From positions 29,683 to 93,682 of the IMG/VR virus record IMGVR_UViG_3300031992_000055: a stretch of DNA of 64,000 nucleotides; one strand, written 5' to 3'. This DNA is from a virus. Taxonomy: Duplodnaviria > Caudoviricetes. Within the stretch, counting starts at the first letter, position 1; each line of letters opens with the position of its first letter. Both the position numbers and the translations under genes were made by a program. Of this stretch, positions 22,251 to 55,486 are shown in pieces. The notes below the pieces were generated by a model. The model searched no databases, was not told the DNA's origin, and saw only the letters and a list, made by a program, of their open reading frames with translations.

Positions 22251-22614
22251 CAGTGCTACCTTTTGACTTTTTCTTAGGAGTTGATTCTACAGAACCTAAA
22301 TACTTTATCATCTGCATCTGCAAAGTACTTAATTGACTTTTGAGACTATCATTTTCTTTTTGCAAGTATTCTATCTTTTCATTGAGAGATAGTATAGTCT
22401 CTTCAAATCTTTGCTTTTGTGCAGCCATTGATTCTTCCATTGTCTTTTTATATAATTCAAATGAAGCATTTTGATTCTCAATATGCTGACTTTCTACTTC
22501 TGTATTATACTTTCTTCTTGTGAATATAAATGTTACCCAACTTGAGACTGTAGTACAGAACAGTCCCACTAATGCTATAATAATTTCTGCTCCCATCTCT
22601 TTTAGTTTTTGCAA
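22231..22614 (-). CDS. Holin-like membrane protein
   Basis: N-terminal TM segment plus coiled coil, directly upstream of the endolysin. Confidence 0.6.
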   Translation of the reverse strand: MQKLKEMGAEIIIALVGLFCTTVSSWVTFIFTRRKYNTEVESQHIENQNASFELYKKTMEESMAAQKQRFEETILSLNEKIEYLQKENDSLKSQLSTLQMQMIKYLGSVESTPKKKSKGSTDGDIDK

Positions 22615-22736
22615 ATGTACTCATAATATTGACATAATATTTAGACATTACAAAAAGACTAAGGTTAATAACCTGTATTATTAATATGTACTCTTAAGAA
22701 GTTTCTATGTAGTACTTTTGCATAAACAAAAATAGA

Positions 22737-23339
22737 ATGAAGCAGATAGTATTTATATTGGTGTTTATTCTGGGGTTAGCTCTAGTCCTTGCTGTTAAGC
22801 AGATAGAGATACTTGATAAGAAGTGGAAAGATGCCACTATAAACATGAAGGCATATAGTGCTCAGTTAGATGCAAGCAAGAAGGATAATGTAGCATTTCA
22901 AATGACTATAGATCAGTTGAGATACTATGGAGATTCCATCATGAGGGAACTTGATAAGACTAAGAAGGAACTCAATGTTAAGGATAAAAACACTATAGCT
23001 CTTCAGTATGTAGGTTCTACATTTACTAAGAGTGATACTGTCATGTTAAGAGATACTGTATTCAAGGAACCTGCTTTTGCTTTAGATACTACTCTTGAAG
23101 ATCAGTGGTATTCTATGAGAATAGGCCTTAGTTATCCTTCTACTGTAGCTGTATCTCCTAGATTCCATAGTGAGAAGCATATTATAGTATCCTCTAAGAA
23201 GGAAACAGTGAATCCTCCTAAGAAGTTTTTTCTTTTAAGGTGGTTTCAGAAGAAGCATAGGGTAGTCAAGGTAGATGTTATAGAGAAGAATCCTTATGTT
23301 AAGGATGAAGAGAATACGTATATTCACATAGTCAAATGA
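22737..23339 (+). CDS. Spanin-like protein
   Basis: N-terminal TM, coiled coil, C-terminal KKFFLLRWF motif; next to the lysis genes. Confidence 0.6.
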   Translation: MKQIVFILVFILGLALVLAVKQIEILDKKWKDATINMKAYSAQLDASKKDNVAFQMTIDQLRYYGDSIMRELDKTKKELNVKDKNTIALQYVGSTFTKSDTVMLRDTVFKEPAFALDTTLEDQWYSMRIGLSYPSTVAVSPRFHSEKHIIVSSKKETVNPPKKFFLLRWFQKKHRVVKVDVIEKNPYVKDEENTYIHIVK

Positions 23340-23380
23340 TCATAGTGATTTAATAGTTGTTGTTAAGTTAAGATTTTATG

Positions 23381-24562
23381 TTAACTTGTTTCGTGTGTCA
23401 TTTTTTCTCCCTTGCTTGTGAAAGTGGGGGAGTTTTTTATTGCCTTCACTACAGTCTCATCTAACAGTTTAGCATATATTTGCTCTGTTATCCTTGTAGA
23501 TGAATGTCCGCATATTCTTGCTATTATCTTCATATCTATACCTTCATTCAATAACATAGTTGCTCCTGTGTGTCTAGCCCAATGAGAGCTTATTGGTTTA
23601 TCTACTCCTGAAGCCTGGGCAACTACTTTGAGATACTCATTGTACTTGACATTGCTTATGATAGGTAATGTTTGATTATACTTATCTAGTATTCTTAAGG
23701 CGTCTTGTACTAAGGGTATAGTGAAAGGTTTATCAGTCTTCTTTCTTTTCCCTATGTATACCTTCGTCCCCTCTAACTCTGTTACATCATTATATTTAAA
23801 TCTTACAAGGTCAGAATAGGATAAACAAGTATAGGTTTGGAATATAAATAAATCTCTTACTCTCTCAAGGCACTTAGTTGGTAATATAGAAGTCTTTATC
23901 TTGTAGAACTCTTCTTCAGTCAGGTATCTTGATGTGTGAATGTTCTTGCCTTTATTGATGTTTACCCAGTTATATGGATTCTTATTAAGTAAACCATCTT
24001 TAAGGGCATCAAGAATAAAAGAGTTCAAGAACCTGTGATAATTGTTCCATTTACTATATATCTTCATTTCTTTACTTTCTAAATATCTATCATAGGCAAT
24101 TATGTTAATCTCATTGACATCTTCAAAGTATATAATTTTTCCCCACTCTTCAAAGAATCTAAGGAACCTATTATATCTTTCTTGGCTATCTTTGGACTTT
24201 CCATATTTCCTTATCTCTGCTCTAGTCTTACAGAAAGCCAGGAAAGAAATGTTCTTTTCCTTCAAGAGTTCCATTCTTCTGGGAATATCAGATAGGGTAA
24301 TATTGCCTTCTTCAGACATTGTTAAGAGAACTTGTCTGATCTTGGATAGTAAAGACTCTATTAAGTCATTATACTTAGAAGCATCTGGAGTATTTATAAC
24401 TTTATCTTTTCTCCATTGATTAGGATATACTCTGATGCCTGTACTCAGATACTTTTGTTTGTAATTATAGGTTATACGTATTTCTATGGTAGCCTTTTTC
24501 TTTGAGGAGGCTTTCTTGTATCTGTCATAGATAAGACAGATTTGAGGAAAATGGTTAATCAT
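23381..24562 (-). CDS. int: Tyrosine integrase (Bacteroidota type)
   Basis: Arm-binding N-terminus (IEIRITYN..YLSTGI), TCLSYSDL, KKT, HWARHT, GHSS..TEQIYA. Confidence 0.93.
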   Translation of the reverse strand: MINHFPQICLIYDRYKKASSKKKATIEIRITYNYKQKYLSTGIRVYPNQWRKDKVINTPDASKYNDLIESLLSKIRQVLLTMSEEGNITLSDIPRRMELLKEKNISFLAFCKTRAEIRKYGKSKDSQERYNRFLRFFEEWGKIIYFEDVNEINIIAYDRYLESKEMKIYSKWNNYHRFLNSFILDALKDGLLNKNPYNWVNINKGKNIHTSRYLTEEEFYKIKTSILPTKCLERVRDLFIFQTYTCLSYSDLVRFKYNDVTELEGTKVYIGKRKKTDKPFTIPLVQDALRILDKYNQTLPIISNVKYNEYLKVVAQASGVDKPISSHWARHTGATMLLNEGIDMKIIARICGHSSTRITEQIYAKLLDETVVKAIKNSPTFTSKGEKMTHETS

Positions 24563-24669
24563 TGTTAAATGTAATTGGTAAGGTTAAGTGTCAGCAGTGG
24601 TAGTGTAAATATGTAATAAAAGAAAAGTATACTATAATAAATGTGTATATGATAATATATGCCAATGAC

Positions 24670-24700
24670 CAAAAAAGAGAGCCATAGAAGGCTCTCTTTT
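24670..24700 (-). terminator. Terminator following the att-embedded tRNA 3' end
   Basis: AAAAGAGAGCC/GGCTCTCTTTT hairpin plus U tract. Confidence 0.75.
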
Positions 24701-24708
24701 AGATTTTG

Positions 24709-24751
24709 CGGAAGGTGAGGGATTCAAACCCCCGATACCCGAAAGGGGTAT
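24709..24751 (-). other. attP candidate: 3' half of a tRNA-Ser
   Basis: ATACCCCTTTCGGGTAT (variable arm), CGGGGGTTTGAATCCCTC (T arm), ACCTTCCG (acceptor, G73). No 5' half; ~150 nt upstream of int. Confidence 0.8.
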
Positions 24752-24931
24752 ATTTTATTGAGAACCAATTGCTTATATAATTCTTAATAAAATGATACTA
24801 CGGAGGATATAATGAATACATAATAAATAGGTTTAAAAGGATTATAATAGATGGTAAAGCAAAGATAAATAATCCATATGAAACTTCCAAGGTATAATTT
24901 TAAAAAATATTGTATTTTTTTAAGTTGAAAA

Positions 24932-24963
24932 TTTGGAAGTATAAATGGAAATGTATATCTTTG
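24932..24963 (+). promoter_or_regulatory. Canonical Bacteroidota sigma70 promoter
   Basis: TTTG-N20-TATCTTTG; a divergent CTTG-N20-TATCTTTG lies on the minus strand at 24891-24860. Confidence 0.7.
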
Positions 24964-25090
24964 TGGAGTCTTAAATAACAGATACTTTAACCTATCAAGT
25001 CACTATAATAGAGATACATATTTAGTTTGACTAAAGTATTACTTTAAGTGATTTTGTCCTAAATTATAAACTAATTTAAACTACTGTAAT

Positions 25091-25291
25091 ATGAAGAAGT
25101 TTCCAACAAGTGAAAAAGAGTGGCAGGCAGAAAGTGATGCCAGGACTCTAGCAGAATACCAAAAGATAATGGGAGATAAAGATAGAATGAGCAGGGCTCT
25201 TAAAATTGCTAAAAGGGAAGCTGCTCGTTATAGGGAGCAGGCTGATGCTATGGATAAAGTTGTAGGAAGTAGACCCAGAAGAAAAAAGTAA
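25091..25291 (+). CDS. Small basic protein
   Basis: WQAESDARTL motif; first rightward gene after the promoter. Confidence 0.65.
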   Translation: MKKFPTSEKEWQAESDARTLAEYQKIMGDKDRMSRALKIAKREAARYREQADAMDKVVGSRPRRKK

Positions 25292-25295
25292 TGAT

Positions 25296-25472
25296 ATGCC
25301 ACAGAAGAAAGAGAAAAAAGAATTGGCTATTATTCAAGCCCATTCTCTAAGAGACTTGCTTAATCAAGTAAATGAAGTTAATTTCAATGATAGCAAACCT
25401 ACTATAATGAGGGATGATATTATTGGATTACAAAAAATCGACGATACTTATTTTCTTTTATATTTTAGATAA
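25296..25472 (+). CDS. Small hypothetical protein (58 aa, not in ORF track)
   Basis: MPQKKEKKELAIIQAHSLRDLLNQVN...YFLLYFR fills the gap. Confidence 0.6.
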   Translation: MPQKKEKKELAIIQAHSLRDLLNQVNEVNFNDSKPTIMRDDIIGLQKIDDTYFLLYFR

Positions 25473-25488
25473 ATAAAAGGAGGAGCCT

Positions 25489-25911
25489 ATGTGTAGTCAA
25501 GAGAAGAGGAAAGAATATGACGAAGAACCTGTCAAGTACTGCACTAACTGCTACTCTTTAAAGATAAAATATGAAGAGACTATAGATAGCGATTGTTGTG
25601 CAAATTGTGGATGTCTCAGTATAAGAGAATCTAATATAAGGGAATGGGAGAAGTTATACGAGAAAAAATATGGAAAAAAATTTGTTGAAGATACCTGTAA
25701 TCTAAAGCAATCAGCATACTTCAATATGCCTATCTCAAAGCTAAAGAAAAAGGTATTTGAAAGCAAAAACTTTGATACTATTCTCAAAACACTTTATCCT
25801 AATTTTCCTGGAGGATATAGTAAAGCTGATTCTGTCATATTACTATTTGACAAGCTTTCTAAAGATAACAAGTTAGATGAATTACGTTTATTATTATTAA
25901 AATTGAACTAA
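25489..25911 (+). CDS. Zn-finger protein
   Basis: EPVKYCTNCYSLKI...CANCG. Confidence 0.7.
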   Translation: MCSQEKRKEYDEEPVKYCTNCYSLKIKYEETIDSDCCANCGCLSIRESNIREWEKLYEKKYGKKFVEDTCNLKQSAYFNMPISKLKKKVFESKNFDTILKTLYPNFPGGYSKADSVILLFDKLSKDNKLDELRLLLLKLN

Positions 25912-25915
25912 GGCA

Positions 25916-26206
25916 ATGGAAGAGAAGAAAACAATTACAACTGAGAATGTTCAAGAGAACAATCAGAAATTGAGTTATGAACAGCTTAATGAGGCCTGCT
26001 CTCAACTTTATCAGCAGAATCAAAATTTGCTTAGACAGTTGCAGCAGGCTAATCTTACTAACATGTTTAAAAGATTAGATTATCTTTTTAATGTATTAAA
26101 TTATAATAGTTTGTTTGATGCTGATTTTGTATATGATTGTGTAAAAGAGATAAAAGAAGCTCTTACTGTTGATCAGCCAGAAGAAAAAAAGATTAAGGAG
26201 GAGTAA
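25916..26206 (+). CDS. Coiled-coil hypothetical protein
   Basis: KLSYEQL...RLDYLF. Confidence 0.65.
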   Translation: MEEKKTITTENVQENNQKLSYEQLNEACSQLYQQNQNLLRQLQQANLTNMFKRLDYLFNVLNYNSLFDADFVYDCVKEIKEALTVDQPEEKKIKEE

Positions 26207-26208
26207 TC

Positions 26209-26640
26209 ATGGATGAGGCCAATACTGACAAAAAGATAATTAAGAGGCAGTTAAGGCCAAATAATGTAGTGGCTGTTCCTACAACCTTTGGCACTGAATT
26301 CTTTAAATGGTGGTGCATATTTCTCAGGCCATTTATTAATCTCACAGATAGAGAAGTTCAAGTAATTTCCTGTTTCCTTAAAGAGAGATATGAACTCTCT
26401 AAGTATATTTCAGATGCAGGTATTCTTGATAAAATGGTAATGAGTGAAGATACTAGGCAGAAAGTACAAAAGGAATGCAAAATATCTTCTCAGCATCTAT
26501 GTGTAGTACTTAATAAACTGAGAAAAAACAAAGTGATTATAGACAACATGATTAATCCTAGATTAATACCTAATATTAGAACAGATGATAATGGATGTTT
26601 TCAATTGCTTATTCTGTTTAAGGAGAAAGAAGAGAAATGA
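26209..26640 (+). CDS. Winged-HTH-like protein
   Basis: LTDREVQV...LNKLRKNKVI. Confidence 0.55.
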   Translation: MDEANTDKKIIKRQLRPNNVVAVPTTFGTEFFKWWCIFLRPFINLTDREVQVISCFLKERYELSKYISDAGILDKMVMSEDTRQKVQKECKISSQHLCVVLNKLRKNKVIIDNMINPRLIPNIRTDDNGCFQLLILFKEKEEK

Positions 26641-26894
26641 CATTAAATGATGTTTTTAAAATAGTATCTGATGATGTAGGATTATCTAAAGCAGAAGTAG
26701 AAAAGATATATAAGGCTTATTGGAAAGCAATAAGAGAACATATTACTTCTATTCCTTTAAAAGAAGATCTTACAGAGGAAGAATTTGAAGATTATCGTCC
26801 TAATGTTAATATTCCGTCTATAGGTAAACTTTATGTGACCTTTGATAAGTATAAGAAAAGAAGAGATATAGTAAAAGGAGTACTTGGAGAATGA
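26637..26894 (+). CDS. IHF/HU-like DNA-binding protein
   Basis: VSDDVGLSKAEVEKI...NIPSIGKLYV. Confidence 0.6.
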   Translation: MTLNDVFKIVSDDVGLSKAEVEKIYKAYWKAIREHITSIPLKEDLTEEEFEDYRPNVNIPSIGKLYVTFDKYKKRRDIVKGVLGE

Positions 26895-27307
26895 TACATA
26901 TTAAAAAAATAAAACCTCTATTTACCACTGTAATTACTACAGGAGATAAGTTTGAACAGGATATGGTTGATGGAGGTATTATCATAGCTAAAAAAGGAGA
27001 CCTTAAATTATGGCAGAAAGTTATAGCAACAGGTTCTGCTGTAAGAGATATCAATGTTGGAGACATGGTGATGATTAATGCAGATCACTTTGCCTTCAAG
27101 AAATATGATAAGAACTCTATTCAGAATGACTTGGATAACAATCCTACATTAGGATATCACTTTAATTGGGTGACTATAGATAATGAAAAAGGAGAGCCTG
27201 AAGAATGCCTGCTCTTAAATGATAGAGATATTATGTATGTCTTTGAAGGAGAAGAAAAGGAAGATTCTATAATAGTTCCCTCAACCAACAAAATAATACT
27301 AAGCTAA
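26891..27307 (+). CDS. GroES/Cpn10-like co-chaperonin
   Basis: IKPLFTTV..GGIII..KVIATGSAVRDINVGDMV..LLLNDRDI. Confidence 0.75.
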   Translation: MIHIKKIKPLFTTVITTGDKFEQDMVDGGIIIAKKGDLKLWQKVIATGSAVRDINVGDMVMINADHFAFKKYDKNSIQNDLDNNPTLGYHFNWVTIDNEKGEPEECLLLNDRDIMYVFEGEEKEDSIIVPSTNKIILS

Positions 27308-27308
27308 T

Positions 27309-27500
27309 ATGAAAGATATAAAGGTGAACTCTTCAGGAGGAGTAGGATTTTGGGGACTTCTTACTATAGTATTTATAGTATTGAAACTTACCCATGTTAT
27401 TGACTGGTCTTGGTGGTTAGTATTATCTCCTATTATTATAGGATTTGTCTTGACTATTGTAATAGCGTTGCTAGTTATCATATTTTCTAATTTAAGGTAG
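27309..27500 (+). CDS. Small two-TM membrane protein
   Basis: GGVGFWGLLTIVFIVLKLTHVIDWSWWLVLSP. Confidence 0.7.
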   Translation: MKDIKVNSSGGVGFWGLLTIVFIVLKLTHVIDWSWWLVLSPIIIGFVLTIVIALLVIIFSNLR

Positions 27501-27519
27501 AAGATTGTTTGGGAGAAGG

Positions 27520-27550
27520 AGCCTGAGCCTATTACAGGCTTAGGCTTTTT
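27520..27550 (+). terminator. Intrinsic terminator
   Basis: AGCCTGAGCCT/AGGCTTAGGCT plus T tract. Confidence 0.75.
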
Positions 27551-27585
27551 AATTATACCTTATAATATATATAGGAGATTATAAA

Positions 27586-28140
27586 ATGAAGTTAATAAAG
27601 GTTGAAGACTATCAATTAAAGGTAGCAGATGAGGCCTTGCTTGTTAAGCCTTTCAGAAAACTTTGGAATATGGATAGATCTCAAGGCAAGGAACAGTTCT
27701 ATAAACAAATGTCTTTGCTCTACTATGTTTATTCTCCTTCTTCTAACTATTCTTATATAGTAGATGAGAAGGCTAGAATGAAAGAGGTAATGGAGCAAGA
27801 GGATATTCGAGATATCAAAAACAATACTGAATTTAAGGCTGCTGTTGAAGTATATAAGAAGCTTGTGAAGACTGCTTCCAGTGAACTGCTTACTGATGTT
27901 AGAATGACTATAGATAAAGTCAGACAGGCTTTGAATAGTATTAACTTTGATGACTTGGAAGAGAAAGACAAGGTAACTGCTCTTAATACTGTTACATCTA
28001 TAGTTAGTAAAATACCTAAGCTTGTAAAAGATCTTTCAGAAGCAGAAAAAGCAGTAGCAAAAGAGTTAGAGGAACAGAATACTGCTAGAGGCTCTCAGGA
28101 GCTTACAGTAGGTGATATATGGTCAGGACAAGGTCTATAG
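27586..28140 (+). CDS. crAss-like protein (possible terminase small subunit)
   Basis: Helical protein ending ARGSQE; resembles the gene I recall preceding terL in crAss-like phages. Confidence 0.5.
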   Translation: MKLIKVEDYQLKVADEALLVKPFRKLWNMDRSQGKEQFYKQMSLLYYVYSPSSNYSYIVDEKARMKEVMEQEDIRDIKNNTEFKAAVEVYKKLVKTASSELLTDVRMTIDKVRQALNSINFDDLEEKDKVTALNTVTSIVSKIPKLVKDLSEAEKAVAKELEEQNTARGSQELTVGDIWSGQGL

Positions 28141-28230
28141 TAAATAGTAGATTTAAGTGTTTATAAGTAAGGGGTTAAGGCATTTGGAGACATTCTCTGG
28201 ATGCCTTAATTTTGTGAAAAATTTTATATT

Positions 28231-31920: not shown

Positions 31921-31931
31921 TATATAAAACT

Positions 31932-32087: not shown

Positions 32088-32177
32088 ATTTATTATACAT
32101 TAATACTTTTCTTATGCTCTTTTTATGTAATAGTTTCTAAGTTAATTTTGCAAATATAATAATTAAAATATGACAAT

Positions 32178-34604
32178 ATGGCATACAATGGATTAGGAGG
32201 ATTTCCTTCTCAACAGTTGTCATTCAGTAGAAAGAATAAAGTATGGAGGAAGAAGTGTGTAGACTTTGGTGATGACCATAGTCTTCTGCACTATCATCTT
32301 ACCAGGAAGTCTGTATTTTCTATGAAGATTAACTATGATCTTCTTAATGGCAAGTTGCACATGTCTGACTTGAGGATGCTATTAAATCCTTATGAGCTTG
32401 ATGCTTCTTTTGTGCCAGATTCAATACAGCATTATCCTATATTGAACTCTAAACTTGAAGTTCTTAGAGGAGAAGAGAGTGAGAGATGGTTTGATTTTAG
32501 GGTAATAGTTACTAACCCTACTGCTGTATCTGAAATAGAGGAAGAGAAGAATGAGCAGTTAAATGGGATGTTGCAGCAGTTGTTAGCAGATACTTCACAA
32601 AGTCAAGAGGATTTTGATAAAGAAGCTGAAGGTCTTGTTGACTATTTTAGGTATGACTATCAGGACAAGAGAGAAATGAGGGCTAATAGGCTTCTTAATC
32701 ACTATATGCAGGAGTTAGATATTCCTCAATTGTTTAATAGAGGATTTGTTGATGCTCTTACTGTAGGGGAGGAAATATACCAATGCAGTATTGTTGGAGG
32801 AGAGCCTTTTATAGAGAAGATAGATCCAATGAAAATTAGAGTAATAAGATCTGGATATTCTAATAAAATAGAAGATGCAGATATTATTATTCTAGAAGAT
32901 TACTGGAGTCCTGGTAGAGTATTAGACACTTATTGGGATCAACTATCTCCCAAAGACATAAAAGCTATAGATGAGGCCCCTGATAATATGGGAAGTACCT
33001 ATAGTGATTCTATGGATAATGTAGATGAGAGATATGGCTTTGTTCCTAATTTAAGTTTGGACATGGTAGCAGGAGATACTTTCATTGATCCTTTAAGCCT
33101 GTTTGAGGAGCATATAGATACCAGTCTTCTTCCTTATGATATGAATGGCAACATTAGAGTGCTTAGGGTATACTGGAAGTCAAGAAGAAAAATAAAGAAG
33201 GTAAAAAGTTATAATCCTGAAACAGGAGAAGAAGAGTTTAATTTCTATCCTGAGACCTTCCACTGTAATCCTGATAAGGGTGAGGAAGAAGAGGTGTTTT
33301 GGATTAATGAGGCTTGGGAAGGTACTAAGATAGGTAATGATATATATGTTGATATGAGACCTTGTCCTATACAGTACAACAGGCTCAGCAATCCTTCTGC
33401 TTGTCACTTTGGTATTATAGGTTCTCTGTATAATATTAATGGGGATGTAGCCTATAGCATGATTGACATGATGAAGCCTTACAGTTATTTATATGATGTT
33501 GTCCATGATAGATTAAACAAGACTCTTGCCAAGAATTTAGGAAAAATAGTAAGGATGGACTTTGCTAAAGTTCCTAAGGGATGGGAGGTAGAAAAATGGC
33601 TTTATTATATTAAGGTGAACAATATTGCTGTTGAGGATAGCTTCAATGAAGGAGATAGAGGTATGGCTACTGGTAAACTTGCCGGTGGTATGAATAATGC
33701 TTCTTCTGGAGTTATTGATGCTTCTTTAGGAAATGAAATTCAACAGTATATTAATTATCTTGAATGGATATCAAATAAGATAGGGGAAATCTCTGGCATA
33801 TCAAGACAAAGAGAAGGTCAGATTTCTAATAGAGAAACTGTTGGGGGTGTAGAAAGAGCTACTTTGCAGTCTTCCCATATTACTAAGAGATGGTTCTTTA
33901 TTCATGACAGTGTGAAAAAGAGAGCTCTTGAGTGCTTCCTTGAGACTGCTAAGATTGCTATGAAGGGAAGAAAGAAGAAATTCAGCTACATTCTATCAGA
34001 TGGCTCTATGCAGTTTATTGATATTGATGGTGATGAGTTTGCAGAATGTGACTACGGTCTTGTAGTAGATAACAGCACAGGTACACAAGAGCTTAACCAG
34101 AAGCTTGATGTTCTTGCTCAGGCTGCCTTACAGAATCAGCTGCTTGACTTTTCTAGCATCATGAAGCTCTACACTACTAAGTCTGTTGCTGAAAAGCAGA
34201 GAATGGTTGAGGCTAATGAAAGAAGAGTTAGAGAAGAGCAACAGCAACAACAGCAGCAGCAAATGCAGTTGCAACAGCAACAGATACAGCAGCAAGGTCA
34301 GATTGCAGAACAGCAGCAGCAGTTGCAATATCAGATGCATCAAGAAGATAATGAGACTAAGTTGCTTGTGGCTCAGATTAACTCCCAGGCTGAAGCAGAC
34401 AGGTTAGCTCTTATGAATGAGGAGCAAGGTCTTACAAGAGCAGAAGAGGCTGAATATAAGCAGCAAGAGTTAAGTCAAAGTGCTAAGGAATTCGAGGCCA
34501 AGATGAAGCAAGAAAGTGATAAGCTTGCCTTCGAAAGAAAGAAGCATGAGGATGATGTCAGACTTAAAGAGAAGCAGATAAACAAGTCTGGTTCTAAGAA
34601 GTAA
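32178..34604 (+). CDS. Portal protein
   Basis: FPSQQLSFSRK..W, INYDLLNG, GISRQREGQISNRETVGGVERA; Q-rich C-terminal barrel. Confidence 0.92.
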   Translation: MAYNGLGGFPSQQLSFSRKNKVWRKKCVDFGDDHSLLHYHLTRKSVFSMKINYDLLNGKLHMSDLRMLLNPYELDASFVPDSIQHYPILNSKLEVLRGEESERWFDFRVIVTNPTAVSEIEEEKNEQLNGMLQQLLADTSQSQEDFDKEAEGLVDYFRYDYQDKREMRANRLLNHYMQELDIPQLFNRGFVDALTVGEEIYQCSIVGGEPFIEKIDPMKIRVIRSGYSNKIEDADIIILEDYWSPGRVLDTYWDQLSPKDIKAIDEAPDNMGSTYSDSMDNVDERYGFVPNLSLDMVAGDTFIDPLSLFEEHIDTSLLPYDMNGNIRVLRVYWKSRRKIKKVKSYNPETGEEEFNFYPETFHCNPDKGEEEEVFWINEAWEGTKIGNDIYVDMRPCPIQYNRLSNPSACHFGIIGSLYNINGDVAYSMIDMMKPYSYLYDVVHDRLNKTLAKNLGKIVRMDFAKVPKGWEVEKWLYYIKVNNIAVEDSFNEGDRGMATGKLAGGMNNASSGVIDASLGNEIQQYINYLEWISNKIGEISGISRQREGQISNRETVGGVERATLQSSHITKRWFFIHDSVKKRALECFLETAKIAMKGRKKKFSYILSDGSMQFIDIDGDEFAECDYGLVVDNSTGTQELNQKLDVLAQAALQNQLLDFSSIMKLYTTKSVAEKQRMVEANERRVREEQQQQQQQQMQLQQQQIQQQGQIAEQQQQLQYQMHQEDNETKLLVAQINSQAEADRLALMNEEQGLTRAEEAEYKQQELSQSAKEFEAKMKQESDKLAFERKKHEDDVRLKEKQINKSGSKK

Positions 34605-34662
34605 TTAGGAAGTTTCTTTTAATTAAGATACTTAATGTTATAGTTATTATTTTTGCAAAAAT

Positions 34663-40637: not shown

Positions 40638-40790
40638 TGAGTTTTATCTCTAACTATTTGATAGTTAGGGATTTATTTTATTTATAGGCATTGTTTTCAT
40701 TCAGTTAGTTTATGTTCTATCTTTGCACTGTACTTCGAGGTATAGTGTTTTTTATTTTATTACTAACTAGATTAAAACAATTTTACTATT

Positions 40791-41756: not shown

Positions 41757-41774
41757 TCAGGAAGGAGGTGAACT

Positions 41775-42122: not shown

Positions 42123-42147
42123 ATATTAATAAATAAAAGTATTAACT

Positions 42148-42636
42148 ATGTTTTCAAATTTAAGTAAAGGCAGTGTATTGTATGGTTTGGATACTAAAGA
42201 TAAAGTCAAAGTATTCACTGCATCAGTAGAGATGGTATCTTTACCTTATCCTAGAAATACTCAAACTACATTTGGACAATTACCAGAAATGGTTGTTGAT
42301 ATTGTAGTTAATGTAGGAGGGGAAAAGAAAGAATTTAAAAGAGTTCCTGCTAATAATCTTATTGCTGATTTTGGACCTAATACTTTAGTATTATCTGATA
42401 CTAAAGATTCTCTGATTAACTATATAAAATCATTAAGACAAGAGAGTAAAAATGTTGTAGATAGCTATCCAAGACATCAGGAATTAATTCCTCAGTATGA
42501 TAAAGCATTACAAGATTTAGATCCTGGTATTGCTAATGAGAATGTAGTAAAAGAGTTGAGAAATCAAGTATCTACAATGCAGAGTCAATTTGCTGAAATA
42601 CTTGCCTTACTTAAAGCTGATAACTCTAAAAAATAA
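42148..42636 (+). CDS. Accessory-module protein (beta-barrel-like N-terminus plus coiled coil)
   Basis: MFSNLSKGSVLYGLD... Confidence 0.7.
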   Translation: MFSNLSKGSVLYGLDTKDKVKVFTASVEMVSLPYPRNTQTTFGQLPEMVVDIVVNVGGEKKEFKRVPANNLIADFGPNTLVLSDTKDSLINYIKSLRQESKNVVDSYPRHQELIPQYDKALQDLDPGIANENVVKELRNQVSTMQSQFAEILALLKADNSKK

Positions 42637-42640
42637 AGAT

Positions 42641-42847
42641 ATGGTAGTAATGTATAGAATGTCTGCTGAGAAAAGAGACAAGATGATCCACAAGTTGGAC
42701 AAGATGATGGATTTCCTTGAAGAGTACAAAACTTGCCTTGAGGAGGCTTCTGAAGAAGAGGAATATCGTGGTGGAAGTTACCGCAAGGATAAAGAGTGGG
42801 ATGAAGAGGAGTCCTATAGAGGTGGTAGATATAGATATCGTCGTTAA
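42641..42847 (+). CDS. Small protein with acidic/YRGG repeats
   Basis: EEEEYRGGSYR...SYRGGRYRYRR; start chosen just after the upstream stop. Confidence 0.7.
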   Translation: MVVMYRMSAEKRDKMIHKLDKMMDFLEEYKTCLEEASEEEEYRGGSYRKDKEWDEEESYRGGRYRYRR

Positions 42848-42855
42848 TTATTAAT

Positions 42856-42880
42856 GGGCTTGGCTCTGTCAAGCCCTTTT
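42856..42880 (+). terminator. Intrinsic terminator
   Basis: GGGCTTG/CAAGCCC plus TTTT. Confidence 0.7.
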
Positions 42881-42892
42881 AAATTCTAAGCT

Positions 42893-43309
42893 ATGTACAG
42901 TACAAAGACAGGAAGTTATGATGAGATACCTGATGGTATGAAGTACTACATTAATAATTATGGTTGCCATTTCAATAAGAAACTTAGTGATGAGGCAGCT
43001 AGAAGAATGTATGCTATTACTGCAGGTAAGAAGACCAGAATAAAACCTTATACCAAAGAACAAGTTGATACTCTACTTAAAACCTATAATATAGAAATCC
43101 AAAGAGGAAAACTCTATGATTGTGTATATGTAGCTAATATGTGTAAAGCTGATTTCTTTGGTAAGTCAGTACCTTCTGAAGAGCATCTTGCTAAATATAT
43201 TAAAGATGTAATTGATGATGTTGATGCTACAGAAGGATATGTGTTTAATAGGTTTTATGCTGATTGTATGTTTATGGATAATCCTATAGATTGGGAAGAC
43301 ATGATATGA
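42893..43309 (+). CDS. Helical phage protein of the accessory module
   Basis: YGCHFNKKL...YDCVYVANMCKADF...IDWEDMI. Confidence 0.75.
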   Translation: MYSTKTGSYDEIPDGMKYYINNYGCHFNKKLSDEAARRMYAITAGKKTRIKPYTKEQVDTLLKTYNIEIQRGKLYDCVYVANMCKADFFGKSVPSEEHLAKYIKDVIDDVDATEGYVFNRFYADCMFMDNPIDWEDMI

Positions 43310-43707
43310 TTAAGCAAGTATTTCATATAAAGAACTATTGGAAGGTTATAGTCTACTATAATGTGGACTATAACTTTTTTGATATTATCAGAAAAGATCT
43401 TGTAAAAATAAATGCTTCTGATACAACTATAGATGATATTTATTATAATTTAGTTGTAAGAGAAGCTAAAGGTGCTACTTATAGCAATACCCATAAACAT
43501 GTTAGTATAATGTTGTTTAATCACCACTCTTCTAAAACTGACTATATTAATACTGTTGTTCATGAGGCAGAGCACGTTAAGCAGGCAATGTTAAAAGTGT
43601 ATAAGGTAGAAGACAAAGGGGAATCTCCTGCTTATACTATAGGATATTTACTCTCAAAAATGTACCCTGTAGTAATGAAGATTATAAATAGACTGTCTGT
43701 TTTTTAA
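43306..43707 (+). CDS. HExxH zinc metalloprotease-like protein
   Basis: VVHEAEH...E.PAY..GYL. Confidence 0.7.
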   Translation: MIKQVFHIKNYWKVIVYYNVDYNFFDIIRKDLVKINASDTTIDDIYYNLVVREAKGATYSNTHKHVSIMLFNHHSSKTDYINTVVHEAEHVKQAMLKVYKVEDKGESPAYTIGYLLSKMYPVVMKIINRLSVF

Positions 43708-43783
43708 TATTAGTAGTTTTTTAATGTGATTCCTTTCAGGAATTAATTATCTTAATTTTGTGCTTCGGAAGAATAGGTGTTTT

Positions 43784-46054
43784 ATGGATAATTTCATATT
43801 TAATAAATGTCAGACTTCTCTAAAGGAATTAGAGTTACAAAAATACCCTGAAGAAGTACAGGAAATGTTTTGGGGCTTCCTTAATAATGTGCCTTTTATT
43901 AAATGGATGGTATCTCCAGATAGGCCTCTTATATCTGAGTTACCAAGAGATAAATATGGTAGAGCTATTATTGATGTTGCCCATCCTCCTATACTTGAAG
44001 GCTCAGACTATTTCAGAAGTACTGCTCTAAAGTGGCAGGAAAGAGGTTCATATACCCATCTCAGGCCTAGCATAAATCCTAACAGCGATTTTGGTAAATG
44101 GCTGTTAGAAGAGAAAAATAGAGGCTGGGAAGGGTATGTGAATCCTAAAACAGGAATGTGGGTAACTGGAGATTACTATTGGATGCTTAACTATTGTCCT
44201 ATACATATGGTTGTTAAAAGGGATGATGGTTTGGAAATGCGTGCTACTAGGCATCCTAAATTTTGGGATGGGCAATTTTTGATATCTCATTATATATATC
44301 AAAGTAGAATTAATAAGCATCATTCTGCATATCTTGCTAGTCGTGGTAAAGGAAAAACGTCATTTGCTGCTGCTATGCTTGCCAAAAGATTTATTATAGG
44401 AGAAGCTTCTGATAACAGGAAAGAGGTACAATGTATGGTTACAGCAGCGGATAGAACAAAGCTGATAGGTACTAACCAGATACTTGATGTATTTGTAGAC
44501 AACATAGACTTTTGTGCCAAAAACACTCAATTTGATTCTCTCAGATTAAAGAGTAGTATACAGGAGTTATATTGGGAGATGGGATATAAGAAAAGAGGTA
44601 GTGATGCTGCCTATGGTTCTAAGAATTCAGTATCCGGCATTATTTCAGGTATTAACCAAGATAAGCTTAATGGTTCCCGTGGTGTGCTTTATCTTATAGA
44701 AGAGGCTGGTATCTTTAGAGACTTAAGAGATGTATATAGTCTTATAAGGCCTTCTGTAGAACAGGGTTCTTCAGTGTTTGGATTAATTTGTCTTTATGGT
44801 ACAGCAGGTAATGAGCAGAGTGATTTTACGTCATTTGCAGAAATGTTCTATTCTCCAGAAGGATATAATATAAATTCCCTTGATAATGTTTTTGATAAAG
44901 AAGGGCAGGGCAGACAGAAATGTGCTATGTTTTATCCTGCATATATGAACTATGATGATAGTTGTGTAGATAAAGATGGTAACAGTGATGTTACTAAGGC
45001 TTTGCTTACTTTATGTGCAGATAGATACAAAGTTAAATATGGCACTTCTGATATTAATGCTATAACTAAGAGAATCTCCCAATATCCTATTACTCCTCAA
45101 GAGGCTATTATTAGGAGTCAAGGCAACGTGTTTCCTGTTACAGAATTAAATGAAAGACTTAATCAAATAGATAATAATCCTAGTGAGTATGATGATGTTT
45201 ATGTTGGTGAGCTAGTACAGGAAGGAAGTAAAGGAGAAGTAAAGTTTAATCCTACTATCGACGTACCCATAAGGAATTTTCCTACTGCTGATAATAAAGT
45301 TAAAGGGGCTATTGAAATATTTCAGATGCCTGAAAAGAATGCTAATGGTGAAATTCCTTTTGGAAGATATATAATTAGTTTTGACCCTGTAGATTCAGAT
45401 GAGGCTAAGACAATGTCTTTAGGCTCATGTCTTGTATTAGATTTGTGGACAGATAAAATAGTGGCTGAGTATACAGGAAGGCCTATGTTTGCGGATGATC
45501 TCTATGAGATAGTAAGAAAGATGTGCTTGTTTTATAATGCTTTATGTATGTATGAGCAGAATATTAAAGGTACCTTTTCTTATTTTAGTTCTCATAATTG
45601 TTCTCATCTTCTTGCTACTACTCCTGAGTATTTGAAAGACAAGCAGCTTGTTTCTAATATAGGGTATGGTAATAAAGCTTGTGGTATTCATGCTACTGTA
45701 CCTATTATTAATTATGGATTTAGACTTATAAGAGATTGGCTTTTAAAATCAGATACTAAAATAGAAAAGGATGCAGAAGGCAATGAGGCGGAAGTGACTT
45801 TGCCTCATTTGTATCATATAAGAAATAGAGCATTATTGCAAGAGCTAATTCAATGGAATCCTAATGGTAACTTTGATAGAGTAATGTCTTTAGTACAGCT
45901 GATGTTGTATAGGGAAGAGAAGATGGTGTTGTTTCAAGGAAATCTTAGGAAGCAAGAAACAAGTTCTGGTCTTGAAAATGATGATTATTGGGAAAGAAAT
46001 TTTCATCCTTCAAGGGCAAAAACAAACAGAAGCCTTACTAATTTTTTTAGATGA
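43784..46054 (+). CDS. terL: Terminase large subunit
   Basis: ASRGKGKT Walker A, IEEAG Walker B, YGTAG, FDPVD nuclease, GNFDRV. Confidence 0.93.
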   Translation: MDNFIFNKCQTSLKELELQKYPEEVQEMFWGFLNNVPFIKWMVSPDRPLISELPRDKYGRAIIDVAHPPILEGSDYFRSTALKWQERGSYTHLRPSINPNSDFGKWLLEEKNRGWEGYVNPKTGMWVTGDYYWMLNYCPIHMVVKRDDGLEMRATRHPKFWDGQFLISHYIYQSRINKHHSAYLASRGKGKTSFAAAMLAKRFIIGEASDNRKEVQCMVTAADRTKLIGTNQILDVFVDNIDFCAKNTQFDSLRLKSSIQELYWEMGYKKRGSDAAYGSKNSVSGIISGINQDKLNGSRGVLYLIEEAGIFRDLRDVYSLIRPSVEQGSSVFGLICLYGTAGNEQSDFTSFAEMFYSPEGYNINSLDNVFDKEGQGRQKCAMFYPAYMNYDDSCVDKDGNSDVTKALLTLCADRYKVKYGTSDINAITKRISQYPITPQEAIIRSQGNVFPVTELNERLNQIDNNPSEYDDVYVGELVQEGSKGEVKFNPTIDVPIRNFPTADNKVKGAIEIFQMPEKNANGEIPFGRYIISFDPVDSDEAKTMSLGSCLVLDLWTDKIVAEYTGRPMFADDLYEIVRKMCLFYNALCMYEQNIKGTFSYFSSHNCSHLLATTPEYLKDKQLVSNIGYGNKACGIHATVPIINYGFRLIRDWLLKSDTKIEKDAEGNEAEVTLPHLYHIRNRALLQELIQWNPNGNFDRVMSLVQLMLYREEKMVLFQGNLRKQETSSGLENDDYWERNFHPSRAKTNRSLTNFFR

Positions 46055-46141
46055 TATTAGTAAACTATTAATATTTAAATGATAACTTATTGTTATAGAT
46101 AATTTTGCATATAGAGTTTTAACTAAGAGAGGAGAATAGCA

Positions 46142-47305: not shown

Positions 47306-47352
47306 GACTACATTATATAGAATGTATTTTTAATGTTTAACTTTTTATAAAA

Positions 47353-49703
47353 ATGGCTGGAAAATTAGGTAAATTTCAGAGACAGACTTTTAGCCACTGG
47401 AAGGGTTGACTCACAAGTTAAGCCCTTGTAAAATCGGGTAAAATCGGTGAAGCCCTCCAAATTAAAGTCAAGGGTAATACCGAGCTAAGGCAGTGGATAA
47501 TACCACTGAACAGTGTAACGCATAGAAGATGAACCTATGAATGGATTTATTTACATCATAAAGAATACTGTAAACAAAAAGGTTTATATAGGTCAGACCA
47601 AAGTTTCAGTAGAACTAAGATGGAAAGAACATTTAAGACATGCTCAGTACGGAGATCAGTTAATAAACAGAGCGATGAAAAAGCATGGAGTAGATAAATT
47701 CTTTATTGAGACATTAGAGCTTTGTGATATTTCTTTGTTAGATGAGAGGGAAATGTATTACATTGATTTGTATGACTCTACAGATAAATCCAAGGGATAT
47801 AATGTAAGTATTGGAGGAAATACTCCAAGATTCAAAAGGAAAGTTTTAAGCATATCAGATTTAATAGATTTATATGTAAACAAGCAATTTCCTTTAAAAA
47901 AGATAGCAGAAAAATATAATGTATCAAGATACATAATATGTTCTGAGCTTACAAATGCAGGAGTGACAATTAGAGATAGGCATAATTCAGCTTGTAAGAC
48001 AAATAAAACGTCAAAGAGATGGATTAAAGAATGCTTAGAGAAAGGAAAGAGTTTAAGAAATGCTGCAAAAATAGCAAAAATGACTTACTCTACTTTTAGG
48101 AATGCCTGCAAATATCACAACATAGAATATAATTCTTCCAAGAGTGCCCGACACTAGAAATAGTGAAAATATATGCTGGACTTACACAATGGTAAAGTGT
48201 AAGAACTATGGGATAAAAAGCCCGTAGGATAACAGAACGTTGACTAAGGATAACCATCTTGGCGCAATCTTTCAGTTGCAACCCCAGAAGGCTACTAATC
48301 TGATGGTGCAGTTGCTTGCTTGGTATAGAGGCAAGACTCTTGATACTTTCTTGTCACAGTTCCCCACTAAGGAGTTTGATACTGATGATGAGTACACTTG
48401 GGATGTTATTGGAAGTTCCAGAAGGAATATTCCTCTTGTAGAAGCCCGTACTGTTGATGGTACTATTGTAGATAGTAACTGTGAGTATAACATTGGTATT
48501 GGCGGTGAACCTTTCTATCTTGTGTTTGGTGAGGACTGGTTTGCTGATGGCGAGGTGATTGTTGGTGAGCTTAATGAGCTTTATCCCTTCAGAATCCTTG
48601 GTGATGGCAGATTTGAGGGTACCAATACTGTATATAAGGTAGAACTCATGGGTGGTATTACTACTGGTGTTCCTGTTGATCAGGTGCTTCCTGGCAAGAG
48701 ATTCTCAGTTGAGTATGCTCCTGTGGAGAGAACTCTCAGTAGAAAAGTTGGTGATATTCGTTTCACTAGCCCTGTGGCTATGAGAAATGAGTTCACTACT
48801 ATTAGAATTCAGCACAAGGTTCCTGGTAATATGCTTGGCAAGAAGGTTGCTTTTGGTATTCCTGTAACAAGAGAGACTAATGGTAGATACGTCAAGGACA
48901 CTGTTAACATGTGGATGCATGAGGTGCAGTGGCAGCTTGAGCAGCAGTGGAATGACTACAAGAACAATGTGCTTGCCTTTGGTAGAAGCAATAGAAATCT
49001 CAATGGTGAATATCTCAACTATGGCAAGAGTGGTGAGGTTATTCGCATGGGTGCTGGTCTTTATGAGCAGATGGAGGTTTCCAATACTATGCCTTATAAC
49101 ACCTTCTCTCTTAAGTTGATTGAAGATGCTCTCTATCAGCTTTCTGCTTCTAAGCTTGATTGGAATGAGCGTACTTTTGTCATCAAGACAGGTGAGCGTG
49201 GTGCTATTCAGTTCCATAAGGCAGTGCTTGATACTGTTAGTGGCTGGACTGCTTTCCAGATTAATGGTGACCAGCTTGGTATGGTGAGAAAGACTAACTC
49301 TCCTCTCCATGAGAATGCTCTTACTGCTGGCTTCCAGTTTGTTGAGTTCCAGGCTCCTAATGGTGTCAAGGTGAAGGTTGAAGTTGATCCTTACTATGAT
49401 GATCCTGTGAGAAATAAGATTAGTCATCCTATGGGTGGTCCTGCCTTCTCTTACAGATATGACATCTTTGATATTGGTACTATGGATCAGCCTAATATCT
49501 TCAAGGTTGCTGTTAAGGGTCAGAATGGTGACTTCACTAGTTATGAGTGGGGTCTGAGAAATCCCTTCACTGGTCAGATGGGTAATCCTTATGCAAGCCA
49601 TGATGAGGACAGTGCTACTATCCACAAGATGTGTACTACTGGTATTTGCGTGCTTGATCCTACAAGAACCATGAGCCTTATTCCTGCTTTGCTAGTAGGT
49701 TAA
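47353..49703 (+). CDS. Major capsid protein, spliced (exon1 47353-47406, exon2 48240-49703; ~505 aa)
   Basis: MAGKLGKFQRQTFSHWKG|LTKDNHLGAIFQ matches the crAss-like MCP N-terminus as recalled for PhiCrAss001. Confidence 0.95.
47407..48239 (+). mobile_element. Group I intron (IA-like) in the major capsid gene
   Basis: IGS AGTTAAGCCCTT pairs with exon1 AAGGGT (U-G) and exon2 TTGACT. Core AAAATCGGTGAA, AATACCGAG, TGTAACGCATAG, AAAATATATGCTG; terminal G. Confidence 0.95.
47537..48157 (+). CDS. Intron-encoded GIY-YIG homing endonuclease
   Basis: GFIY...VYIGQT..RWKEH..E..YI..GYN..GG plus HTH tails. Confidence 0.92.
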   Translation: MNGFIYIIKNTVNKKVYIGQTKVSVELRWKEHLRHAQYGDQLINRAMKKHGVDKFFIETLELCDISLLDEREMYYIDLYDSTDKSKGYNVSIGGNTPRFKRKVLSISDLIDLYVNKQFPLKKIAEKYNVSRYIICSELTNAGVTIRDRHNSACKTNKTSKRWIKECLEKGKSLRNAAKIAKMTYSTFRNACKYHNIEYNSSKSARH

Positions 49704-50811: not shown

Positions 50812-50816
50812 ACATA

Positions 50817-52016: not shown

Positions 52017-52022
52017 TAGACT

Positions 52023-52748: not shown

Positions 52749-52818
52749 ATGTGATTTTATAACGTCTGAGACTTTTAGCCAGAAGCTCAGATAATGTCTA
52801 ACTTAAACTTTTTATATT

Positions 52819-53877: not shown

Positions 53878-53914
53878 TTCCATTTTACTTTTGCGAATTA
53901 TTGTTCTATACAAT

Positions 53915-53950
53915 GGGAGGAGAGGCTTGGTCCTCCCTCCCTTTCTTTTT
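53915..53950 (+). terminator. Intrinsic terminator
   Basis: GGGAGG-GAGG/CCTC-CCTCCC plus T tract. Confidence 0.7.
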
Positions 53951-53967
53951 AATTTAAATGTGAAGAT

Positions 53968-54258
53968 ATGCAATACTTGAAGCTGATTATTTCTAATAAT
54001 GCTCCTAATACAAGGAGTGTCATTTGGGCAAAACCTATAGAGGGAGGATATGCTTTATATATTTTTGGCAATGGTATGTGGAAACCTTTGAAGGCTGTTG
54101 ATGATAAGGGTACTTCTTCCATATCAGATGATACTATTATTTCTACAAGCGGATCTCTTAGTGCTAAAATCTACGAGCTAGAAGATAGTACTTATGGTAT
54201 TAAACTTTCTTCTTCAGAAGAAGATATTTTTGAGCCTTTGGAGGAAAGCACTATTTAA
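53968..54258 (+). CDS. Small structural protein
   Basis: IISNNAP..VIWAKP...GNGMWKP, fibre-like motif. Confidence 0.6.
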   Translation: MQYLKLIISNNAPNTRSVIWAKPIEGGYALYIFGNGMWKPLKAVDDKGTSSISDDTIISTSGSLSAKIYELEDSTYGIKLSSSEEDIFEPLEESTI

Positions 54259-54283
54259 TTATCTTGTTTAATACTTATATGCC

Positions 54284-54946
54284 ATGGTAATATTTGATCA
54301 GTTAAGGATCTCTGACAAAGGAGATCAAATGTATATAAATGCCCATATTAACAAAGCAACATATAAAGATGCTGCGGGTAACCAGCAAGAGTACTTCAAA
54401 GATATGTACATTAAGAAGCTGACTATCATGGCAGCAGATGATGTTTCAGAAGATACTCCTTGTGTTGTTCCTGATGATGTAGAGAAGATTCTTCATGAGC
54501 AAGAGTTTCCTGAGGGCACTAAAGAGATAAACCTGATTATTCCTTTTTGGGACTTTAGTCATATAAGACTTGCAGATGATCCTTGTGTCAGACAGTTTAC
54601 AATAAAGGAAATGATAGGTACTTTATTCTTTGTGTTTATAGAGACAGAAGGAACTCCTAGTGACTGCGTTCCTTGTTATGCAGATAAGACTACTTCAGTT
54701 GGGGTTACTTTTGATGAGAATGTTCTCTATCAAAGAGTAATGGATTACACAAGACAGTTGGCAAGTGATTGTACTATTCCTACAGAGTTTACAGATTTTA
54801 TCTTGCTCTGGAATGCTTTCAAGGCTTCTGTTGAGACAGAGCACTATATACCAGCAATAAAGTACTATAATTTGTTGTTTGGCAAGGGTAATACTCCTCA
54901 ATCAAGGAGTGGTCGTGCAATCAAAGGTTGTGGGTGTCATGGATAG
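54284..54946 (+). CDS. Tail hub protein A (gp38-like)
   Basis: FDQLRIS...GCGCHG C-terminus. Confidence 0.75.
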   Translation: MVIFDQLRISDKGDQMYINAHINKATYKDAAGNQQEYFKDMYIKKLTIMAADDVSEDTPCVVPDDVEKILHEQEFPEGTKEINLIIPFWDFSHIRLADDPCVRQFTIKEMIGTLFFVFIETEGTPSDCVPCYADKTTSVGVTFDENVLYQRVMDYTRQLASDCTIPTEFTDFILLWNAFKASVETEHYIPAIKYYNLLFGKGNTPQSRSGRAIKGCGCHG

Positions 54947-55391
54947 AATACTATATGATTCTTTAAGCAGATACTATAATGCTTTAGAAAAAACAGGCTA
55001 TATGTCTCACGACAACTCTTTAAAGCTTCTTCTTCTGATTTTCTATAGAGACTTTGTCTACAGTGATTACAGAGGATTACTTACAAGAGAAGACTACTGT
55101 TGGATTGAGAGAGCCCTTGAGTGTTTATATGGAACTACATGTTTAATACCTTATCCAGATTATCTAAAAATGGGAAAATTGAAATTAGGAGATATCTCAG
55201 AGCTTGCATGTAGAGTCAAGTCTCTTGAGGATGAGAAAGTTCTTAAGTTAATACATAACATAGAAGAAATGACCAATGATCCACATTCTGATGTTATTGT
55301 TAGGATAGAGGAAGAAGTAGAGGATAATAATGAGGAGGAAGACAATGCTGAAGATACTCCTATTATTACTGACCCTTCTCAGATTCTCTAG
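54939..55391 (+). CDS. Tail hub protein B (gp39-like)
   Basis: RYYNALEKTGY...ALECLYGTTCLIPYP. Confidence 0.75.
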   Translation: MDRILYDSLSRYYNALEKTGYMSHDNSLKLLLLIFYRDFVYSDYRGLLTREDYCWIERALECLYGTTCLIPYPDYLKMGKLKLGDISELACRVKSLEDEKVLKLIHNIEEMTNDPHSDVIVRIEEEVEDNNEEEDNAEDTPIITDPSQIL

Positions 55392-55486
55392 TAAAGAAGT
55401 CTTTTAGTAAATAAAACAGTATTATTAATGTGGCTCAGAGGTATGATAAAATATTATACCTTTGGGCCATAATAAATTATAACATT

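Follow-up and report, generated by a model that had tools for sequence, protein, structure and literature searches.

crAss-like phages are the most abundant human gut phages, and published work on their late transcription describes host RNA polymerase acting at host-like promoters. In phage phi14:2, middle and late transcription is rifampicin-sensitive and carried out by host RNA polymerase, and a 'tripartite' promoter motif is common to Steigviridae (Drobysheva et al., 10.1101/2020.03.07.982082). Here we analyzed a 64,000-nucleotide stretch, hereafter the window, that comprises bases 29683-93682 of a 93.7-kb phage contig (IMG/VR record IMGVR_UViG_3300031992_000055); positions are those of the window unless marked as genome positions. 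The window encodes crAss-type genes, namely the portal (32178-34604), the large terminase (TerL; 43784-46054) and the major head protein (48303-49703), and its portal is 58-62% identical to those of Steigviridae, cr128_1, DAC15 and crAss001 among them. Upstream of a perfect -7 element, TAnnTTTG, many of its promoters carry short TTAG-like boxes at fixed distances. These boxes are position-locked, selection-conserved, phage-specific cis-elements, and the promoters that bear them are a distinct class in one clade of gut and rumen Steigviridae crAss-like phages.

The closest described promoters are those of the Bacteroidota primary sigma factor, sigma-A(Bfr), with a -33/-7 consensus in which the T of TAnnTTTG lies at -12 (PMC6847099). 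The perfect -7 TAnnTTTG is common to these and to the boxed promoters, but the sigma-A(Bfr) promoter also has a -33 TTTG, whereas most boxed promoters lack the -33 TTG and bear phased TTAG boxes further upstream. We give box offsets as nucleotides (nt) upstream of the -7 box, counted to the start of the box; with T at -12 (PMC6847099), the boxes start at approximately -43/-44, -55, -65 and -77 from the predicted transcription start. Phage phi14:2 belongs to the same family, and its middle and late genes, those for portal and RNA polymerase among them, are preceded by promoters that depend on host RNA polymerase and have a -7-type element. Its promoters P070, P075, P108 and P110, whose sequences we inspected, consist of an A-rich block, a -33 TTG(C/A/G) and TAnnTTTG, with no phased TTAG. 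The boxes are not the published tripartite motif, as boxed promoters have neither the A-rich block nor the TTG.

Beyond the Bacteroidota, direct repeats that straddle or replace the -35 region are known from lambda CII (TTGC-N6-TTGC) and from the pho boxes of PhoB. Like these, the boxes are short direct repeats with a 10-12-bp period, set at a fixed distance from a core whose upstream element is weak or absent; with up to four repeats, the arrays recall pho promoters with two pho boxes. Unlike them, the nearest box ends 3-4 nt upstream of the -33 slot, the array reaches to about -77, and the box sequence bears no relation to theirs. Counted from TA, the proximal box covers -31 to -28 and the slot of the -33 element, further downstream, covers -24 to -21, with no overlap. 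The UP element of E. coli rrn promoters has two subsites, near -42 and -52 and about one turn apart, that boost promoters with poor cores, and box starts at about -43/-44 and -55 match these two positions. UP elements, however, are A-/T-tracts that occur in host promoters, conserve no G and stop short of -77, whereas G is kept in 62-79% of the boxes and no TTAG peak occurs in two Prevotella metagenome-assembled genomes (MAGs). Finally, the zinc-finger late activators P2 Ogr and P4 Delta, like T4 MotA-AsiA, are small proteins with which a phage steers host RNA polymerase, still carrying its primary sigma factor, to late or middle promoters; Ogr acts through a dyad TGT-N12-ACA near -55 and MotA through a box at -30 that replaces the -35 element. 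This phage likewise encodes a winged-helix-like protein and a zinc-ribbon protein that bears an extra, clade-specific domain, but the box positions differ, no sequence homology was found, and structural matches are within noise for small helical domains.

The boxed promoters of the window are listed here, with offsets in brackets.

22612-22684, minus strand: leftward lysis promoter; -7 box TACATTTG at 22612-22619, CTTAG at 22659-22662 (-43), TTAA at 22681-22684 (-65); serves a 121-residue gene (22231-22596) and a DUF5675 gene (21789-22250).
22660-22720, plus strand: lysis-regulator promoter; -7 box at 22713-22720, TAAG at 22660-22663 (-53), TTAA at 22681-22684 (-32); serves a 200-residue gene (22737-23339) that is 44% identical to the crAss001 lysis regulator gp27.
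28141-28214, plus strand: four-box promoter of a 1229-residue gene; boxes at 28141 (-66), 28154 (-53), 28164 (-43) and 28176 (-31), -7 box at 28207-28214.
32100-32150, plus strand: portal promoter; only the -43 box (TTAA, 32100-32103).
34595-34655, plus strand: tail-fibre promoter (1375-residue gene); boxes at 34595 (-53) and 34605 (-43, TTAG).
43710-43760, plus strand: large-terminase promoter; TTAG at 43710 (-43), TTAA at 43721 (-32), and a hairpin in the spacer.
46047-46107, plus strand: promoter of the 387-residue gene downstream of the terminase gene; boxes at 46047 (-53), 46057 (-43) and 46068 (-32).
55392-55464, plus strand: promoter of a 248-residue virion structural gene; boxes at 55392 (-65), 55404 (-53) and 55425 (-32), without a -43 box.
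5594-5654, minus strand: promoter of the homing-endonuclease gene 4800-5519(-); boxes at 5651-5654 (-53), 5641-5644 (-43) and 5629-5632 (-31).

The divergent promoters at 22619(-) and 22713(+) share a pair of quasi-palindromic sites (CTAAG, 22659-22663; TTAA, 22681-22684), and either site is in register for both of them. The promoter at 28207 alone among the window's boxed promoters has a -33-like TTG, and a strong hairpin (free energy, dG, -16 kcal/mol) lies between its proximal box and -7 box.

The original prediction had placed TTA boxes at fixed distances of 43 and 32 nt upstream of TAnnTTTG. All ten of its TAnnTTTG boxes and every hexamer it quoted are present in the sequence; GTAATG (for 22619) and TAAGTA (for 28207) are loose matches. 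The fixed spacing also holds. Among ten window promoters, TTA starts at -43 in five and at -32 in five, with two additional boxes at -53 (four of ten) and at -65/-66 (three of ten at -65), and every other offset from -75 to -9 has zero to two. At the intergenic TTA frequency of 0.035, five of ten at one offset has p = 1.2e-5, or 8e-4 when corrected for 67 offsets. When all 93.7 kb of the genome are scanned for T[TA]A[GA] at -53+/-1, -43 and -31+/-1, two or more of these three boxes precede 9/19 intergenic, gene-facing TAnnTTTG sites versus 3/128 other TAnnTTTG sites (Fisher 2.4e-7). A weight matrix covering positions -70 to -26 only, trained on other phages without this genome, returned 24 top matches here, of which six lie exactly 70 nt before a perfect TAnnTTTG versus about 0.02 expected. 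The -7 element is a perfect TAnnTTTG at all boxed promoters, and no boxed array was found ahead of one-mismatch -7 variants, save one coding-region match. The class is not confined to 22612-55464, the interval to which it had been assigned: the promoter at 5601(-) and two to the left of the window, at genome 22947(-) and 25984(+), carry three or four boxes each.

We then compared related phages, drawing 107 IMG/VR loci from TerL and portal searches and comparing the full genomes of ten relatives and crAss001. Seven genomes form the box-rich set (G000, G003, G004, G005, G008, G009, G012) and five the box-poor set (G014, G016, G017, G018, crAss001). In 219 non-redundant intergenic, gene-facing TAnnTTTG candidate promoters, TTAG occurs 30 times at -43, 29 at -31, 19 at -53 and 29 at -66/-65 (16 and 13), with a mean of 1.07 at other offsets (Poisson p 1e-32 to 1e-10 for the peaks), so the anchored statistics that had been proposed as a check do find the spacing enriched over background. 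The -33 TTTG appears at -24 in the same data, which validates the anchoring. The box consensus is yTTAG(t)A, tolerated as TWAR. Peaks are sharp to a single base, with commonest spacings of 12-10-12; the proximal box is yTTAG at -31 in most relatives and TTAA at -32 in this genome, where the proximal pair is spaced by 11. Orthologous portal promoters of G004, G008, G009 and G012 have three or four boxes.

Conservation picks out the boxes. In thirteen orthologous TerL promoters, yTWAG-N7-TTWAG ends about 27 nt before TAnnTTTG and the intervening sequence is fully diverged. Pairwise identity, averaged over six families of orthologous promoters, reaches 0.85-1.0 at -53, -43, -41, -31 and -29 and 0.79 at -51, compared with 0.25-0.45 in the spacers. 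A repeated promoter cassette is ruled out as the origin of the pattern, because the promoters of one genome have only the boxes in common. From these sequence comparisons, the boxes are very probably functional promoter elements.

Gain of the boxes coincides with loss of the -33 element. At orthologous late promoters (portal, TerL, post-TerL gene, 248-residue structural gene, lysis regulator and tail fibre), boxes are present in 24/30 cases from the box-rich clade versus 3/18 from box-poor relatives, while a -33 TTG is present in 8/30 versus 18/18, crAss001 included (Fisher 3e-7). The box-rich genomes group together on the portal tree as a single clade (100% support), at whose base lies the box-poor locus L039 and whose sister group (L078-L080, L091) is partly boxed. 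Box gain and -33 loss are therefore one evolutionary change, and the Fisher p-value overstates independence. The box-poor relatives (crAss001, G014-G018) keep -33 TTTG 20-21 nt upstream, as in the literature. No boxed class was found in crAss001, whose late promoters keep the -33 TTG and have at most loose -66/-43 matches.

Candidate host promoters do not display this layout. Relatives were binned in two Prevotella MAGs, both phage contigs fall inside the box-rich clade, and the hosts of that clade are probably Prevotella, as this binning suggests. We examined 400 kb of each MAG and collected 103 and 88 candidate promoters, 191 in all. They show the -33 TTTG peak and a diffuse A/T-rich patch at -41 to -36; they show no TTAG peak, and only two and three sites (5/191) have at least two boxes. 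The boxes are thus ruled out as a general host promoter feature for these two MAGs, whose host status is inferred from binning.

The genes behind boxed promoters encode the portal, TerL, the post-TerL protein, tail fibres, structural proteins, lysis proteins and homing endonucleases, and in relatives also giant proteins of 2300-4100 codons, presumed from size and position to be the virion RNA polymerase. The statement that all boxed promoters serve lysis or virion genes was accordingly right for those genes and too narrow for the regulon, which also takes in the homing-endonuclease genes and the relatives' giant genes. In crAss001, the orthologs are mostly late genes (PMC8375218).

Two promoters had been noted as lacking the pattern, and neither has a box array.

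24956-24963, plus strand: unboxed promoter of the operon 25091-28140, with a canonical -33 TTG and an 89-128-nt leader.
40718-40725, plus strand: promoter of the accessory operon 40791-43707, with a -53 match only, counted as unboxed.

The 24956-type promoter is unboxed in 5/6 relatives and has two boxes in G004. The operon that it precedes holds winged-helix-like, zinc-ribbon and HU-like genes. Candidate readers of the boxes come from this operon and from three other places in the window.

25091-25291, plus strand: basic helical protein of 66 residues, first gene of the unboxed operon.
25489-25911, plus strand: zinc-ribbon protein of 140 residues, ortholog of crAss001 gp11 and a new candidate box binder.
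26209-26640, plus strand: winged-helix-like protein of 143 residues, ortholog of crAss001 gp13 (53% identity), in every relative examined.
10802-11269, minus strand: 155-residue protein with a distribution like that of the 25091 protein in profiling.
16311-16628, minus strand: Myb-like protein of 105 residues.
40356-40637, plus strand: HTH_17 protein of 93 residues that resembles excisionases or small terminase subunits.

Three of these, the genes at 16311, 26209 and 40356, had been put forward as the activator. Telomeric Myb domains read TTAGGG, which made the Myb-like protein appealing, but it is unlikely to be the activator: box-rich G008 and G012 lack the gene, whereas box-poor G017, G018 and G021 have it. 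The HTH_17 protein fares no better, being absent from G008 and itself encoded behind boxed promoters in G003, G004 and G012. The 26209 protein stays possible as a winged-helix-like protein, but it also occurs in box-poor crAss001, and it leaves the restriction to one clade unexplained. Its model (pLDDT 82) has winged-helix matches at Z 5.3-6.6, a consistent theme below the confidence line, and among these many matches are two to MotA (Z 6.3, root-mean-square deviation (rmsd) 5.9 A; Z 5.7, rmsd 6.9 A).

When all 134 open reading frames (ORFs) were profiled phylogenetically against 11 genomes, the analysis picked the 10802-11269(-) gene, the 25091-25291 gene and an extra domain of the 25489-25911 protein. 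The 25091 protein is found in 6/6 box-rich relatives and 0/5 box-poor genomes by tblastn, with weak homologs in a partly boxed sister group. The zinc-ribbon protein is 138-149 residues long in all seven box-rich genomes versus 67-82 in box-poor ones; its additional C-terminal ~70 residues are predicted to form a small helical domain with weak SAP- and CARD-like matches (Z <= 5.5). Since the portal tree shows a single clade, these profiled genes are leads and not evidence, and when the zinc-ribbon correlation was followed through 48 portal loci, no further independent transition came to light. Sequence searches with the candidate proteins in Pfam, PHROGs and the PDB yielded nothing useful, and Foldseek returned nothing significant for the models of the 25489 and 26209 proteins.

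How the boxes act can be approached from these data. The best explanation is that a phage-encoded DNA-binding activator reads them together with host RNA polymerase, a proposal from sequence that we consider evenly balanced between right and wrong. The original prediction had named host sigma70 as the partner; the host factor is of the Bacteroidota sigma-A(Bfr) type and not classical sigma70 (PMC6847099). A boxed promoter would present the activator with a perfect TAnnTTTG, usually no -33 TTG, and two to four boxes at 31/32, 43, 53 and 65/66 nt upstream. A phage DNA-binding protein, probably made from the unboxed operon 25091-28140, would occupy these phased boxes, perhaps as two pairs in keeping with the 12-10-12 spacing. 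It would then bring in host sigma-A RNA polymerase, or hold it in place, at promoters that work poorly for lack of a -33 element, and this dependence on an activator would create a delayed, late switch. In its fuller form, which we hold a little more tentatively, a Prevotella-associated clade swapped the -33 element for up to four phased boxes, and either the zinc-ribbon protein, through its clade-gained domain, or the winged-helix gp13 homolog would read the boxes and hand sigma-A RNA polymerase to the late genes.

Several points weigh against this proposal. The box binder is a set of candidates only, and the structure matches of both protein candidates are weak (Z <= 6.6). The loss of the -33 element and the gene-content correlations are single events and not independent replicates. 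Within box-rich genomes, a -33 TTG occurs at 11/54 boxed versus 17/55 unboxed promoters, with no significant difference, and the host is inferred from MAG binning only. An activator may also be unnecessary, because the two best-placed boxes coincide with the UP positions of the E. coli alpha C-terminal domains.

This coincidence defines the main rival, in which the boxes are a phage-evolved UP-like element that host alpha C-terminal domains read directly, compensating for the absent -33 contact without any phage protein. Box starts near -43/-44 and -55 correspond to the proximal and distal UP subsites of E. coli (Ross/Gourse), the distance from the -7 box is fixed to the single base, and it is promoters without the -33 element that gained the boxes; against this, a TTAG peak is missing from the host-like Prevotella promoters, which show only the diffuse A/T patch at -41 to -36, alpha C-terminal-domain sites do not usually conserve a G or come as four boxes out to ~-77, and the flexible alpha linker would not predict sharp -65 peaks. 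We regard this rival as unlikely, if still a serious contender. Host factors could act in another way, with a nucleoid-associated protein or global regulator binding the boxes and coupling late transcription to host physiology. Short degenerate boxes do resemble the sites of bending proteins, and these phages encode HU/IHF-like proteins, suggesting that promoter architecture matters, but the 191 candidate host promoters, where a host regulon would be expected, have no enrichment of boxed arrays, and we judge the idea improbable.

An equally low probability attaches to the boxes being operators through which a repressor or silencer holds late promoters off early in infection or in a lysogen. 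The integrase gene at 23381-24562 would fit such a role, as would the core promoter at 16824-16831(-), which is overlapped by boxes at -30, -19 and -9 such that binding would block RNA polymerase. Yet boxes of the regular class lie wholly upstream of the core promoter, where they are poorly placed for simple occlusion, and loss of the -33 element weakens promoters, which calls for activation and not repression; the 16.8-kb array overlapping TAGATTTG, moreover, showed no conservation in relatives. Chance or shared ancestry in AT-rich intergenic DNA is refuted. In DNA of 65% A+T, T[TA]A[GA] occurs often, and not all of the hexamers first quoted match closely, but Poisson p-values fall to 1e-32, a matrix trained on other phages finds sites here, and non-homologous promoters of one genome have a common layout while their spacers have diverged to background identity.

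The result is a precise conserved cis-element, with a box sequence, four positions, a regulon and candidate proteins. The suggestion that such a late-gene switch was undefined for crAss-like phages agrees with our full-text literature searches, which found no description of the boxes. If the activator proposal were true, Crassvirales would gain their first defined late-gene switch, and Bacteroidota would gain a new activator-promoter pair. Sister clades offer a natural contrast, with boxes in one and the -33 element in the other. The element is usable as a late-promoter annotation marker in hundreds of uncultured Crassvirales genomes and might serve genetic work in Prevotella and Bacteroides as an orthogonal promoter part that phage can induce.

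Several further features accompany the boxed promoters. The replication arm carries three paralogous phrog_4645 endonuclease genes and one GIY-YIG gene, scattered as listed here.

4800-5519, minus strand: endonuclease gene.
7473-8321, minus strand: endonuclease gene.
Genome 21973-22917, minus strand: endonuclease gene.
Genome 26022-26840, plus strand: endonuclease gene.

A separate TAnnTTTG promoter precedes each gene. Full box arrays are present at three of these promoters, 5601(-), genome 22947(-) and genome 25984(+), which drive two of the phrog_4645 paralogs and the GIY-YIG gene. These mobile endonuclease genes appear to carry or acquire the phage's late-type promoter.

The spacer between the proximal box and the -7 box has features of its own at some promoters. 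Hairpins with compensatory changes occupy it at 28178-28206 and 43727-43742 and in the TerL promoters of L011, L012, L015, L018 and L021. Their dG is as low as -16 kcal/mol, and in some cases a T-run comes next and passes into the -7 box. These hairpins look like terminators of the upstream operon nested in the next promoter. As a general feature of the class such hairpins were rejected, since dG <= -5 occurs in 16% versus 5%, a subset only. At promoters of the 248-residue gene, in which the -43 box is missing from the orthologs as well, the spacer GGCTCAGAGGTAT between the -32 box and the -7 box (55429-55447) is kept in six genomes.

A different arrangement is found at 16824-16870(-), where TTAA, CTTAAG and TTAG at -30, -19 and -9 abut the TAGATTTG core promoter (16824-16831(-)). 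This array sits at the head of the leftward replication arm, approximately 190 nt before the Myb-like gene; its register differs from that of the late class, and it would extend over the core promoter.

Around the unboxed 24956 promoter (24886-25090, and orthologs in G003-G012), a CTTAAA lies near -64, a word resembling TTTAAA precedes the -7 box by about 10-16 nt, and the leader of the 25091-28140 operon contains a conserved ACTTTAAG. This layout may represent a separate, perhaps middle, promoter class or a leader element. Near the TerL start codon, a motif (A)GTAGAAG(A)TT(G/T)T that relatives conserve stands about 20 nt before the ATG (L001-L026; 43770-43783 in the window), even without a nearby promoter, and may be a translation-initiation or leader element.

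The window also encodes a full-length tyrosine integrase at 23381-24562(-), with Phage_integrase, Arm-DNA-bind_5 and SAM-like domains; homologs occur in G003, G005 and G012 and in none of the other relatives examined. At the contig ends, a giant ORF of at least 3141 codons (genome 1-9423(-)) runs off the left end, and another of at least 921 codons (window 61238-64000(+)) runs off the right end, facing the first. The two match the convergent RNA polymerase genes annotated in crAss001. They leave opposite ends toward each other, and the contig is a nearly complete genome broken within the block of convergent RNA polymerase genes. At genome 9395(-), the left giant ORF has a promoter that combines a -33 TTTG with the proximal box only.

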